Position numbers and translations under genes: made by a program
Part shown: in pieces, positions 2,454-8,194 of the stretch
How positions within the stretch are numbered: position 1 is the stretch's first letter
Layout of the letters: every line of letters starts with the position of its first letter
Sequence record: KJ190157
Direction: 5' to 3' (one strand)
Length of the DNA: 64,000 bases
Source of the DNA: Escherichia phage vB_EcoS_FFH_1
The notes under the pieces: model-generated
What the model was told of the DNA's origin: nothing
Seen by the model: only the letters and a program-made list of their open reading frames with translations
Databases searched by the model: none

Positions 2454-2986
2454 TAATAAGTAACCAATTCCTGTACAAATCGCAGGCTGTTATCACTGTT
2501 TGCGCCAACTGCATAGACTAATCGAGTGGATTCATAGTTATAATCCAGTATCATACTATCTAGGTGTATATCTGCCTCTAGCTTCTGTTCGCTAAAGATT
2601 GTAGATACAAAAGCACTTTCAATATGCCCATGTTGGTACATTTCTAGAAGAAGATTAGCTCCACCTAGAACTACTGTTTGCTGATCTTTTAGAAAAGTAG
2701 GTAATGTATCACCTATCATTGATATGGGAGTGTAAATATCATGTGTAATATCATCTGGCAGTGGACGATCAGCACGAATAAATAGGTCAGAAGCTCCAAT
2801 CATACGTTCCCTAACGGCGTATGGAAGAGCTAAATAAGTACCAGCACCAATGATGATGTTATCTGGATTCAACACGTCCAGTTGAGAATAGAAAGCATTC
2901 AGTTCTTCTTTGAAAGAGCCCCAAGGGAGCTTACCTCGGAGGCCGAACTCCCCATTCGGCCCAACTGCGTACATTGCTGTAATCAT
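2453..2986 (-). CDS. frd: dihydrofolate reductase
   Basis: 177 aa; MITAMYAVGPNGEFG N-terminus typical of DHFR; ATGA overlap with nrdB upstream and overlapping start/stop with thyA downstream (frd-td arrangement as in T4). Confidence 0.8.
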   Translation of the reverse strand: MITAMYAVGPNGEFGLRGKLPWGSFKEELNAFYSQLDVLNPDNIIIGAGTYLALPYAVRERMIGASDLFIRADRPLPDDITHDIYTPISMIGDTLPTFLKDQQTVVLGGANLLLEMYQHGHIESAFVSTIFSEQKLEADIHLDSMILDYNYESTRLVYAVGANSDNSLRFVQELVTY

Positions 2987-4128
2987 AAGAAATCTCCAAA
3001 TTCATTACCCAGATCTTTCAGAGTATCAGTAGAGGTCTCAGTTACCTGACCTACACGGTAGGCTGCACCAATCTGGATTTCTTGTGGAGCAGGCTGTAGA
3101 GAAGTAGTATCCAACCAGTTCATAATCCACGGAATAGGGTTTTTAGTGATTACTGGTAAGTGACTAGGCCATTCTACACCAATGTGCATAAATGCATTAC
3201 GCCCTACAAAGTACAAGTATTCTTCTAGAAGTTCTGCATTCAAACCAATCAGACTACGACCTTTGAAAATGAAATGACCCCATTCAATTTCAGTTTTCAG
3301 AGTTTTCAGGAGCTGTGCTGGTGCTTTAGCCACTGCTTCGTCTACCAGATCTTTGTCAAACTGCTGGAACATAATCTGGATGATTGCTTTGGACATCTGA
3401 GTGTGCAGAGCTTCATCTTTAGCGATTAATTGCAGATTTTTAGCAATACCTTGCAGAATATCGTTCTCTGCTAATGCAAAGGTACATGCAAAGGATGCGT
3501 AGAACTGCATTGCTTCCAGACCGTAGATTGCAAAATAAGCATCTAACAGTTTAGCCTGAGTTTCACGCTTAACTTCAGGGAACTCCGTTTCTGGGTATGT
3601 ATTGTCACCACGATGATCACGTACTGCGATGAAATACTGACCTAACTGGTACAGTTCATCGAATAGTTCAACAGAATCAGCGATGCGTGCGAATGCTTCT
3701 TGGTTTTTGGTTACAGAATCAATAAATTCTGCTGGATCAGTTAGCACATTACGAATAATATTGCTATAAGCACGACTGTGCAGATCTTCGAAGTAGCTCC
3801 ACTGCTTGAGCATACCTTCCAATTCTGGACGACTTACAAGCGGCATAATAGCTGCTTCAGGAGCACGACTGATGAAGGAATCTGTTTGAGTCTGCCATGC
3901 TAAGTTCAGGAGTGTAATTTCCTGAATTTCTCGTGGGAGATTAGGCCATTGTTTCTTATCTGCTTCCAGACTGATTTCAGTTTCAGTCCAAAATTGAGAG
4001 CGTTGCAGAAGTGCCAGACGTTCTAGTTCTGGATGTGCTACACGTACATAATCTGCGATACCTAGAGAATCTCCCAGGAAAAGGTCAGCGTTAGTATGAT
4101 CCCAATTCAGGTTTAGTAAAGTAGTCAT
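2983..4128 (-). CDS. nrdB: class I ribonucleotide reductase beta subunit (R2)
   Basis: 381 aa; ferritin-like R2 motifs (EAMQFYASFACTFALAEND); own TTGCTA-N17-TATAAT promoter and AGAGGA SD upstream. Confidence 0.9.
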   Translation of the reverse strand: MTTLLNLNWDHTNADLFLGDSLGIADYVRVAHPELERLALLQRSQFWTETEISLEADKKQWPNLPREIQEITLLNLAWQTQTDSFISRAPEAAIMPLVSRPELEGMLKQWSYFEDLHSRAYSNIIRNVLTDPAEFIDSVTKNQEAFARIADSVELFDELYQLGQYFIAVRDHRGDNTYPETEFPEVKRETQAKLLDAYFAIYGLEAMQFYASFACTFALAENDILQGIAKNLQLIAKDEALHTQMSKAIIQIMFQQFDKDLVDEAVAKAPAQLLKTLKTEIEWGHFIFKGRSLIGLNAELLEEYLYFVGRNAFMHIGVEWPSHLPVITKNPIPWIMNWLDTTSLQPAPQEIQIGAAYRVGQVTETSTDTLKDLGNEFGDFL

Positions 4129-4159
4129 TGATTTTCCTCTTTCTCACTATTTCAGGAAT

Positions 4160-4188
4160 ATTATAGCAAATCTGGTAGCGATTAGCAA
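4160..4188 (-). promoter_or_regulatory. sigma70-type promoter TTGCTA-N17-TATAAT for nrdB
   Basis: minus-strand -35 at 4188-4183, -10 at 4165-4160; lies at the 3' edge of the HNH gene. Confidence 0.55.
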
Positions 4189-4194
4189 ATAAAA

Positions 4195-4677
4195 TTATAA
4201 ACTATCAAGCTCCAATAGTTTAGCATCGCGCCATTCTATAGCATCCTCTAATTCTTTGAATGTTTTAGTATGTTTTACACCTTTTCTAGCAATCTGGACT
4301 TGGTAAGATCCGCTTGCTTTTTGGTGTATATTTTTAATACCTAACTTATTGTCTTTGTGCGCTCCGACATTCTTTCCATTGTTAAATCTATCAGATGCTA
4401 ATAAATTAATTGCTCTATTATCATGACGTATTCTGTTGTCATGGTCTACTTCTTTTGGAATGTATCCATGGGTGATATAGAATGCTAAGATATGTGCATA
4501 GTATTTTTTACCCCTTACTTGCATTACTATGTATCCTGAACATTTTTCTAGAGAACCTGCTTCTTTGTCAGCAAACTTAGTATTAAAGGATTTATCTTCT
4601 CTAGGTCTGTGGGTAAAGATTCCGGTTTCTGGATTATAGTCAAATAACTCAGCTATTTCTTTGTATTTTTCTTCCAT
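4195..4677 (-). CDS. free-standing HNH homing endonuclease with C-terminal AP2-like DNA-binding domain
   Basis: HNH_3-type motif VDHDNRIRHDNRAINL; C-terminal GSYQVQIARKGVKHTKTFKELEDAIEWRDAKL resembles AP2; sits between nrdA terminator and nrdB promoter. Confidence 0.75.
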   Translation of the reverse strand: MEEKYKEIAELFDYNPETGIFTHRPREDKSFNTKFADKEAGSLEKCSGYIVMQVRGKKYYAHILAFYITHGYIPKEVDHDNRIRHDNRAINLLASDRFNNGKNVGAHKDNKLGIKNIHQKASGSYQVQIARKGVKHTKTFKELEDAIEWRDAKLLELDSL

Positions 4678-4707
4678 AATCTAAAATTACAGCCGTTATA
4701 GGCCTAA

Positions 4708-4728
4708 TAAAAGGGGCTTTCGCCCCCT
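4708..4728 (-). terminator. intrinsic terminator after nrdA (hairpin usable on both strands)
   Basis: GGGGC-TTTC-GCCCC stem flanked by A4 and T-rich runs. Confidence 0.6.
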
Positions 4729-4734
4729 TATTTA

Positions 4735-7068
4735 TTATAATTGGCAACCACCTGATGCGCATCCAGCAGCAGCTTCCTCTCCTGCACCTCCACCGTTTGC
4801 GGTGTTGAAGTTAGCATAATAGAAAGTTTTCCACCCGTACTTAACAGCAGTCATGAAATCACGAACTACTACTGGGCCAGGAATAATTTCATTCTCAAAC
4901 TTGGTGTAGTCGTAGTACATATTAGTACTGATAGACTGGCTGAAGAATTTCTGCATAGTTGCTACCCATTTGATCCACTCGATACGATCTACATCATAAG
5001 CCAATTTATAGCTCATTAACGTTTCCCAATCGGTTGCACCTGGAGCAATTGCAATTACTTTATTTACTGCACTACCCTTGATAGATACAATCTTACGTGG
5101 TGGTTCGATAGAGTTAGTAACACCTAACAGAACAGAAGAACTTTCTCCCGGCATCTGAGCAGTCAGAACAGAGTTACGCATACCATATTTCAGAATATCT
5201 GCACGTAGAGACTCCCAATCCATTTCTAGACCTATGGATACCAGTTCATCAACAGTTTTCTTGTACGTGTCGATTACCAAAATTCCCTTAGATGGTTTAG
5301 TACGATCAAACCACTCACATGCACCCTGTTCTTTAGCTAGGCGTACAGAGGCTTTATGCAGGAAGTAAGACAGTTTTTCAGCCTCACGGTGAATCCAGTT
5401 ACGTGCTTCAATACCTTCATAAGCCAGACCTTCTGCGGCCATTGCACCTGCTGCGTTCATTAGGCCAATACCAACATTACGACGTTTCTTAGCCGTATAT
5501 TCCATAGTTGGGAACGGATAATCCTGAATTTCGATAATTGTATCAATGAATTTCAGAAGGATGTAGCAAGTTTTTTCCCACTCAGCCAGAGATTCCATGC
5601 GTCCAAGTACAACACCACCTAAGTTACACAGAGATACTTCACCAATATCCTCCGGCTTCATTTGATCAAGCTGCTCTTTTGTCTTATACAGCTCTGTGAT
5701 ATGATGGAACGGGCGTGTAGGCTGAGTAATCTCAACACAAAGGTTTGTCATACGGATCGGATCAAGGAAATTACCATGACGATTAGACTCCCCAATGTGA
5801 TGAGCATACATACGTCCTGTTTCCATTCGGATACGTAGCCAAGTATCTAGGATTTCTTTTGCAGAGACTTTAGGAGCTGCTGGAACTGTTTTTCCTTTGT
5901 GGTCGATCTTTGTAAGAGATGCCACACGTTTCTCCGCTGCCACATAGATTTCTTCAAATTTAGCCTCGTCATCACTATAAAACGCTTCATGAACTTCTGG
6001 AGCATAGAAGTATGACATTAGCGTAATATCTTCATTTTTCAGATAACGTTTTAACAAAAGATTGTTGAAGCTCAGAGAATAATCCATCTTATCGATTTTA
6101 TTCTCATCTGTAGCACGTTGTTGCTTAACCTGCATCAATTGAATGATTTCAGGGTCAAAGTATGGATAAGACACTGTAGCAGAACCACCACGAGTTTGCT
6201 GAGTATTGGCCTTTACTGAGCGGTCAATGTGTCGATAATATGGCAGTTTTCCGGAATGCGGGAATGCCCCATTTCGCACCGGATCAGCAATTGATCTGCT
6301 CTCAAGATGATACCCGATTCCCGCTCTGGCTGCGACCATTTTGAAGACGATGTGCTCGGCGGTGTCGATTGAATCCAACGTGTCAGTGGAATCCACGAGG
6401 CAGCAACTAGCAAATCCACGGTCACTAGAGCGCAGACCAACCAGTGGCGGCGTAGGAACGTTGATTTTGTGGAGCGACATTGCGTTGTAGAGGTCGATTG
6501 CATCTAGAATTGTCCAGTTAGGTTGAGATAACATCGCCATTGCCATACCCATGTAGGCAAACTGCGGGGTTTCATAAATTTCACCAGTGGCTATGTTACG
6601 ACGGGAATACTTATCAAAGAACTGCTTCAGCCCACCACTAGTAAAAAGACGGTCACGATCATGGTCGATAACCTGATTCAGAGCTTCAAATTGCTCATCG
6701 GTAATCCATGCACTCATGTCTTCCCATGCACCTACGCTAACCATGTGGTCATGGAAGAAACGTAGAGAAGGTGGTTCGAAGGAGTCATAAAGGCGCTTAC
6801 GCATTTGCGCAAGACGTAATTCCTTTGCTGGCACATCGTATGCTGGGTTATCTTTGATAAGACTTTCAGCAGCTTTAATTAATGCGTCCATCAGAGTGTC
6901 GGAATCTACAACCCCTTTAGGTAGAGTTTTTTGAGCAGCCATAGTAATGGCTGACCAACTTACATCAACTGTTTTGCAACCATACTCTGCCCAACCATTG
7001 AGTTTTTCAGGAGCAAAGTCTTCTACAGTACCGTCACGTTTAATTACTTTTTCAATGCGATGGCTCAT
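4735..7068 (-). CDS. nrdA: class I ribonucleotide reductase alpha subunit (R1)
   Basis: ATP-cone-like N-terminus (VIKRDGTVEDF), NLCVEIT active-site loop, C-terminal Cys pair CASGGCQL; start placed at internal ATG 7068 (AAGGAAA SD); the longest ORF extends to 7173. Confidence 0.88.
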   Translation of the reverse strand: MSHRIEKVIKRDGTVEDFAPEKLNGWAEYGCKTVDVSWSAITMAAQKTLPKGVVDSDTLMDALIKAAESLIKDNPAYDVPAKELRLAQMRKRLYDSFEPPSLRFFHDHMVSVGAWEDMSAWITDEQFEALNQVIDHDRDRLFTSGGLKQFFDKYSRRNIATGEIYETPQFAYMGMAMAMLSQPNWTILDAIDLYNAMSLHKINVPTPPLVGLRSSDRGFASCCLVDSTDTLDSIDTAEHIVFKMVAARAGIGYHLESRSIADPVRNGAFPHSGKLPYYRHIDRSVKANTQQTRGGSATVSYPYFDPEIIQLMQVKQQRATDENKIDKMDYSLSFNNLLLKRYLKNEDITLMSYFYAPEVHEAFYSDDEAKFEEIYVAAEKRVASLTKIDHKGKTVPAAPKVSAKEILDTWLRIRMETGRMYAHHIGESNRHGNFLDPIRMTNLCVEITQPTRPFHHITELYKTKEQLDQMKPEDIGEVSLCNLGGVVLGRMESLAEWEKTCYILLKFIDTIIEIQDYPFPTMEYTAKKRRNVGIGLMNAAGAMAAEGLAYEGIEARNWIHREAEKLSYFLHKASVRLAKEQGACEWFDRTKPSKGILVIDTYKKTVDELVSIGLEMDWESLRADILKYGMRNSVLTAQMPGESSSVLLGVTNSIEPPRKIVSIKGSAVNKVIAIAPGATDWETLMSYKLAYDVDRIEWIKWVATMQKFFSQSISTNMYYDYTKFENEIIPGPVVVRDFMTAVKYGWKTFYYANFNTANGGGAGEEAAAGCASGGCQL

Positions 7069-7106
7069 TTGGCTTTCCTTTTTATAGTTATCAGGATTTA
7101 AGGAAT

Positions 7107-7135
7107 ATTCTACTTTATTATCGGTCATTAGGCAA
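7107..7135 (-). promoter_or_regulatory. putative promoter TTGCCT-N17-TAGAAT for nrdA
   Basis: minus-strand hexamers with 17-nt spacer in the 7069..7209 intergenic region. Confidence 0.4.
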
Positions 7136-7209
7136 ATAAAATTTTCTGATAGAAAAGGCCCGAGTATTTTCATACCCAGGCCTGTATATTACCAGTCTAG
7201 CTTTTTAGC

Positions 7210-7431
7210 TTATTCAATTACTTTAGCTCTAGCTACTTCTTTTAATAGAATATCTATAGAGGTGCTCAGCTCATTATAATTGAATGGTTTATTTGGATTT
7301 GAGGTTACAATTTTCCACGCTAGGGTTGTCTTAGGACTTTCTTCCCCTTCCTTACGTGTAATCATATTAGCAGCACTCAGTGAAGTACGATGTATTTTAG
7401 TTTTACGGCTCAGATGAACGACGTTTCCCAT
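7210..7431 (-). CDS. hypothetical protein (~73 aa), translationally coupled to phoH
   Basis: ATG one nucleotide after phoH stop (TAATATG); longer ORF-track version (to 7500) would overlap phoH by 68 nt. Confidence 0.4.
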   Translation of the reverse strand: MGNVVHLSRKTKIHRTSLSAANMITRKEGEESPKTTLAWKIVTSNPNKPFNYNELSTSIDILLKEVARAKVIE

Positions 7432-7432
7432 A

Positions 7433-8194
7433 TTACACCTTCCCCATGTCTTTAAAAATGTCATAGAATGCTTTAGACTCAACAGAACGAACGTTATCAA
7501 TCAATTCGATCATTGAGAAGGGGGCATTTTCGTATTTCTCATAGACTTCCATAAGGAGTGCTAGACCTGAGTCACCTTTAATGTCTTTCTGAGCTATATC
7601 TCCGCAGATAATTAAACGGCAGTCTTGTCCTACACGGGTTAGGAGACAAATCATTGCCTCAACGGAAATATTCTGAGCTTCATCGACAATTACATAGGAG
7701 TTGTTGAAAGTTCTGCCACGAGCATGTTCGATAGCCAAAAATTTAATTTTCTGACGTTCGACATATCCTTTATATGCATGATCGCCGATGGCCCATTTCA
7801 TACCATCAGCTATTGGCTCCAACCAAGGCTCTAGCTTTTCCGCTAGATCACCAGGAAGCATACCAAGAGACTTACCTAGAGGTTCATTAGGACGTACGAG
7901 AATCACTTGCTCAATATCTGAGTGAATGTCTACTAGTTCCTGAGCTGCAAGAACGGACGGAATAAAGGTTTTACCAGTACCTGGCTCACCGATACCCACA
8001 GTCACTGTGTTGTTCTTGATCATATTGATATATGATTTTTGCTCGCGGTTTTTACCTACTAGGGATTTAGCAACTGGGTTAGCGTAATCATTAGAAAAAT
8101 CAGCCTGAATTACGTTATTCTCATATTTGTTGCCACGCTTTCTTGAACCATTGCGGTTCTCTCTTTTTTGACGTGCTTTTCCCATAAATAACAC
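7433..8194 (-). CDS. phoH: PhoH-like ATPase
   Basis: Walker A GEPGTGKTF and Walker B VIVDEAQN; 253 aa. Confidence 0.85.
   Translation of the reverse strand: MLFMGKARQKRENRNGSRKRGNKYENNVIQADFSNDYANPVAKSLVGKNREQKSYINMIKNNTVTVGIGEPGTGKTFIPSVLAAQELVDIHSDIEQVILVRPNEPLGKSLGMLPGDLAEKLEPWLEPIADGMKWAIGDHAYKGYVERQKIKFLAIEHARGRTFNNSYVIVDEAQNISVEAMICLLTRVGQDCRLIICGDIAQKDIKGDSGLALLMEVYEKYENAPFSMIELIDNVRSVESKAFYDIFKDMGKV

Follow-up and report, generated by a model that had tools for sequence, protein, structure and literature searches.

A free-standing HNH-AP2 endonuclease gene, probably a homing element, in place of the nrdA terminator of a T5-like phage

Introduction

How a small endonuclease gene came to lie between the RNR genes nrdA and nrdB, and whether it spreads there by homing, is the question raised by the locus described here. 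The DNA analysed, hereafter the window, is a stretch of 64,000 nucleotides from Escherichia phage vB_EcoS_FFH_1 (record KJ190157). T5 itself has a gene of this kind, hegH, at the nrdA-nrdB locus (record NC_005859), and the HNH gene of AKFV33/T5 was described by Niu et al. (2012) as separating nrdA from nrdB, in parallel to mobE of the T-even phages (PMC3326045). More generally, homing endonuclease genes (HEGs) make up most of the local differences among T5-like genomes (PMC10644984). A preliminary description, made from the letters of the window, had interpreted positions 4195-4728 as a free-standing HNH endonuclease gene with an AP2-like domain, set between a terminator following nrdA and a sigma70-type promoter of nrdB, and as the result of an invasion convergent with that of T4. 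It proposed that the nrdA-nrdB junction be compared across T5-like phages and that the protein be searched against the HNH_3 and AP2 profiles. Here we report both analyses, together with a comparison of alleles and of the other endonuclease genes found in the same spacer.

Results

Protein and domain make-up

The features of the locus are collected in Table 1. The gene is already deposited in GenBank and named: the encoded protein matches the "H-N-H endonuclease" of Escherichia phage vB_EcoS_FFH_1 at 100% identity from end to end. It is 96% identical to its counterpart in phiR2-01. The FFH_1 entry and the genes of EPS7, phiR2-01, SP01 and NBEco001, annotated by similarity as 'H-N-H endonuclease F-TflVI' or 'homing endonuclease', all represent the window gene type, for which the searched literature yielded no experimental characterisation. 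Database names for this type are inconsistent and include 'F-TfIVI', 'P-TflVIII', 'homing endonuclease' and 'hypothetical protein' (e.g. in vB_Sen-E22 and EPS7). The P-TflVIII label was transferred from a T5 gene that is just 35% identical and occupies a different insertion point. Orthology of the window gene with T5 hegH/P-TflVIII was considered and rejected on this identity and on the position of the window gene, inserted upstream and not downstream of the nrdB promoter.

Table 1. Positions of the features of the nrdA-nrdB locus in the window
Feature	Position	Strand	Details
nrdB (context)	2983..4128	-	
nrdB promoter	4160..4188	-	TTGCTA-17-TATAAT with TG extension; backbone, not cassette
HEG coding sequence	4195..4677	-	160 aa + stop, ATG start
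Inserted cassette	4197..4725	-	529 bp; alignment with BB1 (empty site), EPS7 and SB6; coding-strand comparison of junction types
AP2-type DNA-binding domain (predicted)	4204-4350	-	aa 110-158; family profile and predicted structure
HNH_3 nuclease domain	4363-4503	-	aa 59-105; D78, H79, N91, N100, N103
N-terminal beta-rich domain	4504-4677	-	aa 1-58
HEG leader	4678..4704	-	3' part of T-run and bases up to ATG
Terminator-like hairpin of cassette	4713..4727 (stem)	-	GGGGGC-GAAA-GCCCC, then T-run TTTTATTA at 4712-4705
nrdA (context)	4735..7068	-	ORF listed as 4735..7173; start probably 7068
Divergent tract, last ~34 nrdA codons	4744..4837	-	94 bp; 15 mismatches vs NBEco002, all at third codon positions

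The window protein matched the Pfam HNH_3 model (PF13392) over residues 59-95 with 34.5 bits, well above the gathering cutoff of 24.8 (E=1.6e-8), the match spanning positions 1-39 of the 46 in the profile; PHROG 99, 'HNH endonuclease', was matched with E=5.6e-49. Across 97 aligned homologues, H79 and N91 did not vary, and conservation of D78, N100 and N103 was 90% or higher. All five residues are present in the window protein and provide the catalytic set of the HNH_3 or I-HmuI-like His-Me finger endonucleases, namely the D-H general base, a structural Asn and a metal-binding Asn. From this alignment the I-HmuI-type HNH active site is intact, as the original reading of the gene supposed. Pfam AP2 gave no match at E<=1 when the window protein was used alone, its AP2 domain being too diverged for that model by itself, whereas 70 of the 97 aligned homologues were matched. 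Searched against the PDB, the family profile identified plant AP2 domains at the C-terminal positions (WRI1, E=8.4e-10; TEM1, E=9.8e-6; ERF1, E=0.028) as well as I-HmuI (1u3e; E=3.5e-7), with the D-H dyads aligned. The family profile was needed for this result; a phmmer search of the PDB with the single protein returned nothing meaningful.

An AlphaFold model (mean pLDDT 93.2) presented the whole protein, including the HNH core, at high confidence and supported a beta-beta-alpha-metal fold, the top Foldseek match in the PDB being I-HmuI 1u3e (probability 0.97, 152 columns and 20% identity, with an E-value of just 0.018). The C-terminus of the model comprises strands 117-119, 125-131 and 134-140 and a helix at 143-159; this three-stranded sheet and helix superposed on the AP2 domain of TEM1 (probability 0.99, rmsd 1.4 A, 38 columns). 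The "HNH-AP2" label of the preliminary description is thus correct, its HNH half borne out by a Pfam match above the cutoff and its AP2 half by the family profile, the homologues and the structural model rather than by Pfam on the window protein alone.

I-HmuI, a nicking enzyme of SPO1, is the best structural match to the window protein, with the D-H...N...N motif aligned. It is encoded in an intron, and its C-terminal DNA-binding domain is a helix-turn-helix, not AP2. The arrangement found in the family of the window protein, with AP2 at the C-terminus after an HNH domain, is that of the HNH-AP2 homing endonucleases, known in cyanobacteria, protists and phages according to Magnani et al. (2004) as cited in PMC10448857. 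When all six-frame ORFs of 60 aa or longer in the 64-kb window were examined with hmmsearch, no other paralogue of the HNH_3-AP2 family was detected.

The cassette and the empty site

The 4.4-kb region around the gene matched 528 phage records, almost all of them Demerecviridae, with SUT_E1520, vB_Sen-E22, NBEco001 and SP01 as best matches (97% identical). By these matches the source genome is plainly that of a T5-like phage. The insert DNA matched 53 records, of which 46 contain it at near full length; all of these come from T5-like phages. Since the flanks are present in ~523 records, ~46 of ~523 (about one in eleven) carry the window allele, and the gene is far from universal among relatives that share its surroundings: more than 90% of the related records (~91%) are without it, and the site is empty in about half of those compared. 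Carriers of the allele are found in Tequintavirus as well as Epseptimavirus, and include a Yersinia phage; the identity of the cassette DNA across the ~46 same-position records ranges from 78 to 98%.

Empty sites were found in relatives whose flanks are 97-97.7% identical to those of the window (EH1, NBSal005, NBEco002, BB1, JLBYU40 and T5_ev212). As judged from record spans, empty-site relatives are shorter by 502 bp at exactly the cassette position. Alignment with BB1 showed that HEG-less relatives have at this place 27 bp, AGATCTTCGGGTCTCCTTTTTCTTTGA, which in the empty allele make up the T-run and the 3' part of the stem of the backbone terminator of nrdA; in the BB1 record, a terminator is annotated after nrdA at this site. 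The ends 4195 and 4728 given in the preliminary description lie no more than 3 bases from those of the cassette delimited in this way. The downstream edge is identical across alleles, the HEG stop codon preceding the -35 hexamer of nrdB by 6 nt. The HEG is intergenic, bounded by the stop codon of nrdA (4735) and the promoter of nrdB (4188), and outside any intron or intein, so that its description as free-standing in the nrdA-nrdB spacer holds. Comparison of the junction across T5-like phages, with the cassette present in some and a clean empty site in close relatives, indicates that the gene is an insertion relative to the latter.

The opposite polarity was also considered, namely that the gene is an ancestral member of an nrdA-nrdB operon that was lost repeatedly. 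Its presence in two genera, with a divergence similar to that of the flanks, would fit such a history. However, the empty sites do not look like deletions of the cassette, for they carry a different, well-formed terminator, GGAGATC-TTCG-GGTCTCC, which is also found upstream of the promoter in the loci of T5, Th1 and SLAM45 type. Together with the absence of the gene from ~91% of the records and the confinement of the difference between the window and NBEco002 to the cassette and a short adjacent tract (see below), this makes repeated loss highly improbable in our judgement.

Two observations concern annotation at the edges of the locus. In Salmonella phage vB_SenS_SB6 (MK809530), at 2252-2578, a tandem repeat of ~300 bp partly duplicates the 5' half of the HEG cassette, and this apparent duplication is annotated with two overlapping CDS named 'homing endonuclease'. 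In the window, the nrdA ORF listed from 7173 comprises 812 aa, and its upstream ATG sits in a terminator-like hairpin (7183..7156) followed by a promoter-like TTGCCT-17-TAGAAT (7135..7107), both on the minus strand. The start at 7068 (MSHRIEK...) has AAGGA just before it and is probably the true one.

Terminator and promoter signals

The terminator-like hairpin of the cassette lies 7 nt past the nrdA stop codon and 35 nt ahead of the HEG ATG. Hairpin and T-run are kept in all eight alleles examined (the window and seven others), with three different stem sequences: GGGGC in the window/EPS7 group, GGGGAC in FGS017 and AGAGGGTTA in phC17. Folding of the single sequence was only modestly better than that of shuffles (z = -1.84), and the hairpin appears better supported by the allele comparison than by such fold statistics. 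The terminator reported after nrdA in the preliminary description was therefore retained as a conserved element, with the amendment that it is borne by the cassette and is not the ancestral terminator of nrdA.

A consensus scan of the minus strand from 4735 to 4678 revealed no sigma-70 promoter for the HEG, and no purine-rich Shine-Dalgarno sequence precedes its ATG (GTAATTTTAGATTATG; the ATG is preceded by GTAATTTTAGATT). While nrdA and nrdB each have a terminator of their own, an AAATTTTAyTTGCyTAAT-type promoter and a strong ribosome-binding site, the HEG is, at the level of consensus, the only gene of the nrdA-nrdB stretch without recognisable signals of its own. Promoter and terminator calls were made by consensus scans, complemented with conservation across alleles and relatives. 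In the interval 2900-7600 the best promoter-like site, matching the consensus at 10 of 12 positions, was that of nrdB. Since the number of such sites was no higher than in shuffles (11 versus 11.9), the call draws its support from conservation: with at most 1-2 bases changed, the promoter is present in the empty-site phage BB1 and in the T5-, Th1- and SLAM45-type loci, and it is annotated at the same place in the T5 record NC_005859. Thus, the sigma70-type promoter that had been noted at the 3' edge of the gene was confirmed. Its retention in empty and otherwise occupied sites implies that it belongs, with the nrdB 5' UTR, to the backbone, and both are unaltered by the insertion.

Comparison with T4 mobE

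The T4 record lists nrdA, mobE, nrdB.1 and nrdB in this order on one strand, which corroborates the position of mobE invoked in the preliminary description. As in the window, a free-standing gene for an endonuclease of the HNH superfamily occupies the nrdA-nrdB interval and is co-oriented with both neighbours. The two proteins showed no detectable homology (BLASTP E=0.82; hhalign probability 0.1). MobE matches Pfam HNH (PF01844), not HNH_3, at its N-terminus and lacks an AP2 domain, in contrast to the HNH_3 plus AP2-type composition of the window protein. The T4 mob family was accordingly rejected as the home of the window gene. Since homology between the two proteins is undetectable, the common position is convergent, in line with the earlier suggestion. 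In T4, mobE was shown experimentally to be promoterless, to depend on upstream transcription and to be limited by an intrinsic terminator; in mixed infections the gene is mobile, and its product nicks the nrdB gene of T2 (PMC2790892). By consensus scans and conservation, the window HEG likewise appears promoterless and preceded by a terminator. The mobE terminator is internal to the gene, whereas that of the window HEG lies upstream.

Selection and integrity of the alleles

Among seven HEG alleles, dN/dS ranged from 0.02 to 0.11, with a synonymous divergence of ~0.5 between the window and EPS7 and ~1.1 between the window and FGS017. The ORF was full length and the catalytic residues were intact in all eight alleles examined. 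These figures show that the protein is under strong purifying selection and kept functional, rather than being a decaying remnant. An inactive HEG can persist through linkage to RNR genes, as exemplified by I-TevIII in the T4 nrdB intron, and the window gene could be conceived as another such relic, held in place by the essential genes on either side. The lack of a promoter and Shine-Dalgarno sequence of its own, the terminator immediately upstream and the restriction of the HNH_3 match to part of the profile are compatible with this idea. It is at odds with the preservation of the ORF and of the catalytic D-H, N and N, with the low dN/dS, and with a model in which the whole protein, HNH core included, reaches high confidence; we regard it as very unlikely.

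The same figures bear on a different explanation, in which a former HEG has been domesticated and is kept as a nuclease or DNA-binding protein for a benefit to the phage, not through super-Mendelian spread. It might, for example, exclude competing T5-like phages, or its AP2 domain might bind near the adjacent nrdB promoter. The usual life cycle of a HEG predicts decay after fixation, and strong purifying selection over a large synonymous divergence (dS up to 1.1) would suit a domesticated gene. So would the finding that the divergence of the alleles tracks that of the backbones between the two genera, and the proximity of the end of the gene to the -35 hexamer of nrdB. On the other hand, the frequency of records without the allele, many of them with an empty site, indicates that the gene is dispensable, and a clean replacement-type polymorphism in near-identical backbones is, on these comparisons, what homing predicts. 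Exclusion of competitors by cleavage is, for its part, indistinguishable from homing on these data. Altogether, domestication appears unlikely to us, and a gene propagated by homing remains the preferred reading.

The nrdA tail and mosaic tracts

Comparison of the window with the HEG-less phage NBEco002 showed no mismatch from 3620 to 4188 and a single one at 4189, followed by the cassette. On the other side, the divergent tract at the end of nrdA (Table 1) is followed by one mismatch at 4894 and none until 5235. The difference between the two genomes thus amounts essentially to the cassette and an adjacent 94-bp tract of synonymous sites in nrdA. The window haplotype of the nrdA 3' end is also present in HEG-less BB1, while other HEG carriers have other haplotypes. 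The tract might represent co-conversion or a polymorphism of the target site, possibilities to be set beside the occurrence of the same haplotype in BB1. A search of the flanks for polymorphisms tied to HEG status, which could have pointed to the target site, gave a single consistent difference, the replaced 27-bp terminator segment.

The segment 4744-4837 is hypervariable at synonymous sites, with at least five haplotypes among 14 genomes, unlinked to HEG status, and it includes an indel of 3 nt where the C-terminal tail of NrdA has its Ala run. Sequence patches were also seen on the nrdB side. SP01, otherwise ~96% identical to the window, differs from it at ~40 positions over the initial ~180 bp of nrdB (window 3944-4123), and phC17 has a similar divergent patch at the nrdB 5' end, from ~3850 to 4100. 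These patches are mosaic tracts next to the HEG locus, and the region is a mosaic boundary. Mosaic boundaries have been described generally for phage nuclease genes (PMC10448857).

Other endonuclease genes in the same spacer

About 140 records carry in the nrdA-nrdB spacer one of three other paralogues of HNH_3/AP2 type, which share 32-42% identity with the window protein and 30-45% among themselves: the T5 hegH (P-TflVIII/F-TflVIII) type in 75 records, the Th1/AKFV33-ORF96 type in ~33 and the SLAM_phiST45 type in 34-35. The other records compared, apart from carriers of the window allele, are empty at the locus. Like the window protein, the three paralogues combine HNH_3 with an AP2-type C-terminus (165-172 aa) and come from the same phage family. 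Their slot differs. It lies ~70 bp from that of the window cassette, downstream of the same nrdB promoter, and the genes run from just after the -10 hexamer to the nrdB ATG, replacing the nrdB 5' UTR. From this layout they would be co-transcribed with nrdB from its promoter, whereas the window type, the only one upstream of that promoter, sits behind its own terminator. The paralogue types, as represented by T5, DT571/2, Th1 and SLAM_phiST45, have a common 5' junction, TATAATATCT.

In 30 of 35 records, from phages of Salmonella, Escherichia and Citrobacter, the gene of SLAM_phiST45 type reaches at least 99% identity, which suggests a very recent spread. Recent horizontal spread appears less obvious for the window allele, because the identity of the HEG between the window group and the EPS7 group (~92%) barely exceeds that of the flanks (~90%). 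None of the 40 window-type records listed had a second gene in the other slot, their record spans being equal to the query span except in SB6 with its internal duplication; this absence of double occupancy is a raw record comparison, uncorrected for phylogeny. The AP2 domains of the four same-locus types are only mildly more conserved (37-60% identical) than their N-terminal domains (20-35%). A stronger difference would hint at shared targeting; with paralogues at other loci equally similar overall, no such conclusion was drawn.

Discussion

The observations reported here are best accounted for by a free-standing HNH_3-AP2 homing endonuclease gene whose 529-bp cassette has taken the place of the nrdA terminator in a T5-like phage, an interpretation that we hold to be probable. 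Transcription from nrdA that reads through the hairpin would give the HEG a low level of expression, as the precedent of T4 mobE suggests. When a carrier and a HEG-less T5-like phage infect the same cell, the enzyme would nick or cut the empty allele near the nrdA-nrdB spacer, and repair by recombination from the HEG-carrying genome would copy the cassette, with some of the flanking nrdA, into the recipient. The carrier would probably be immune through replacement of the 27-bp segment, since this is the only consistent difference between filled and empty sites.

The comparison with the other endonuclease genes of the spacer allows a wider and more tentative picture. The nrdA-nrdB spacer might be an arena with two slots contested by four mutually excluding HNH-AP2 lineages, with the saturated synonymous polymorphism of the nrdA tail marking the cleavage target and resistance alleles; we see this as possible but doubtful. 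If it were true, the distance of ~70 bp between the slots would mean that homing of one lineage co-converts the other away. The window lineage would have its own strategy, bringing an upstream terminator, doing without a promoter or Shine-Dalgarno sequence and sparing the nrdB promoter and 5' UTR, while each of the other three would be the first gene of the nrdB transcript.

As to novelty, a free-standing HNH-AP2 gene of this kind, taken to be a homing endonuclease gene from its sequence, is ordinary and already known, and has little significance beyond correct annotation. Statements of the two sub-sites, of the cassette-borne terminator or of the synonymous hypervariability of the nrdA tail were not found in the literature searched, and these points are modest refinements. 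The comparative picture of two insertion sub-sites, four paralogous alleles and a self-insulating cassette likewise adds modest value. The locus provides a further example of RNR genes as favoured landing sites of homing endonucleases, and one in which unrelated HNH enzymes of T4-like and T5-like phages have reached the nrdA-nrdB interval independently. With HEG-carrying and HEG-less phages already isolated that are ~97% identical over the 4.4-kb region compared, it may also be a convenient natural system for the study of competition between homing endonucleases.
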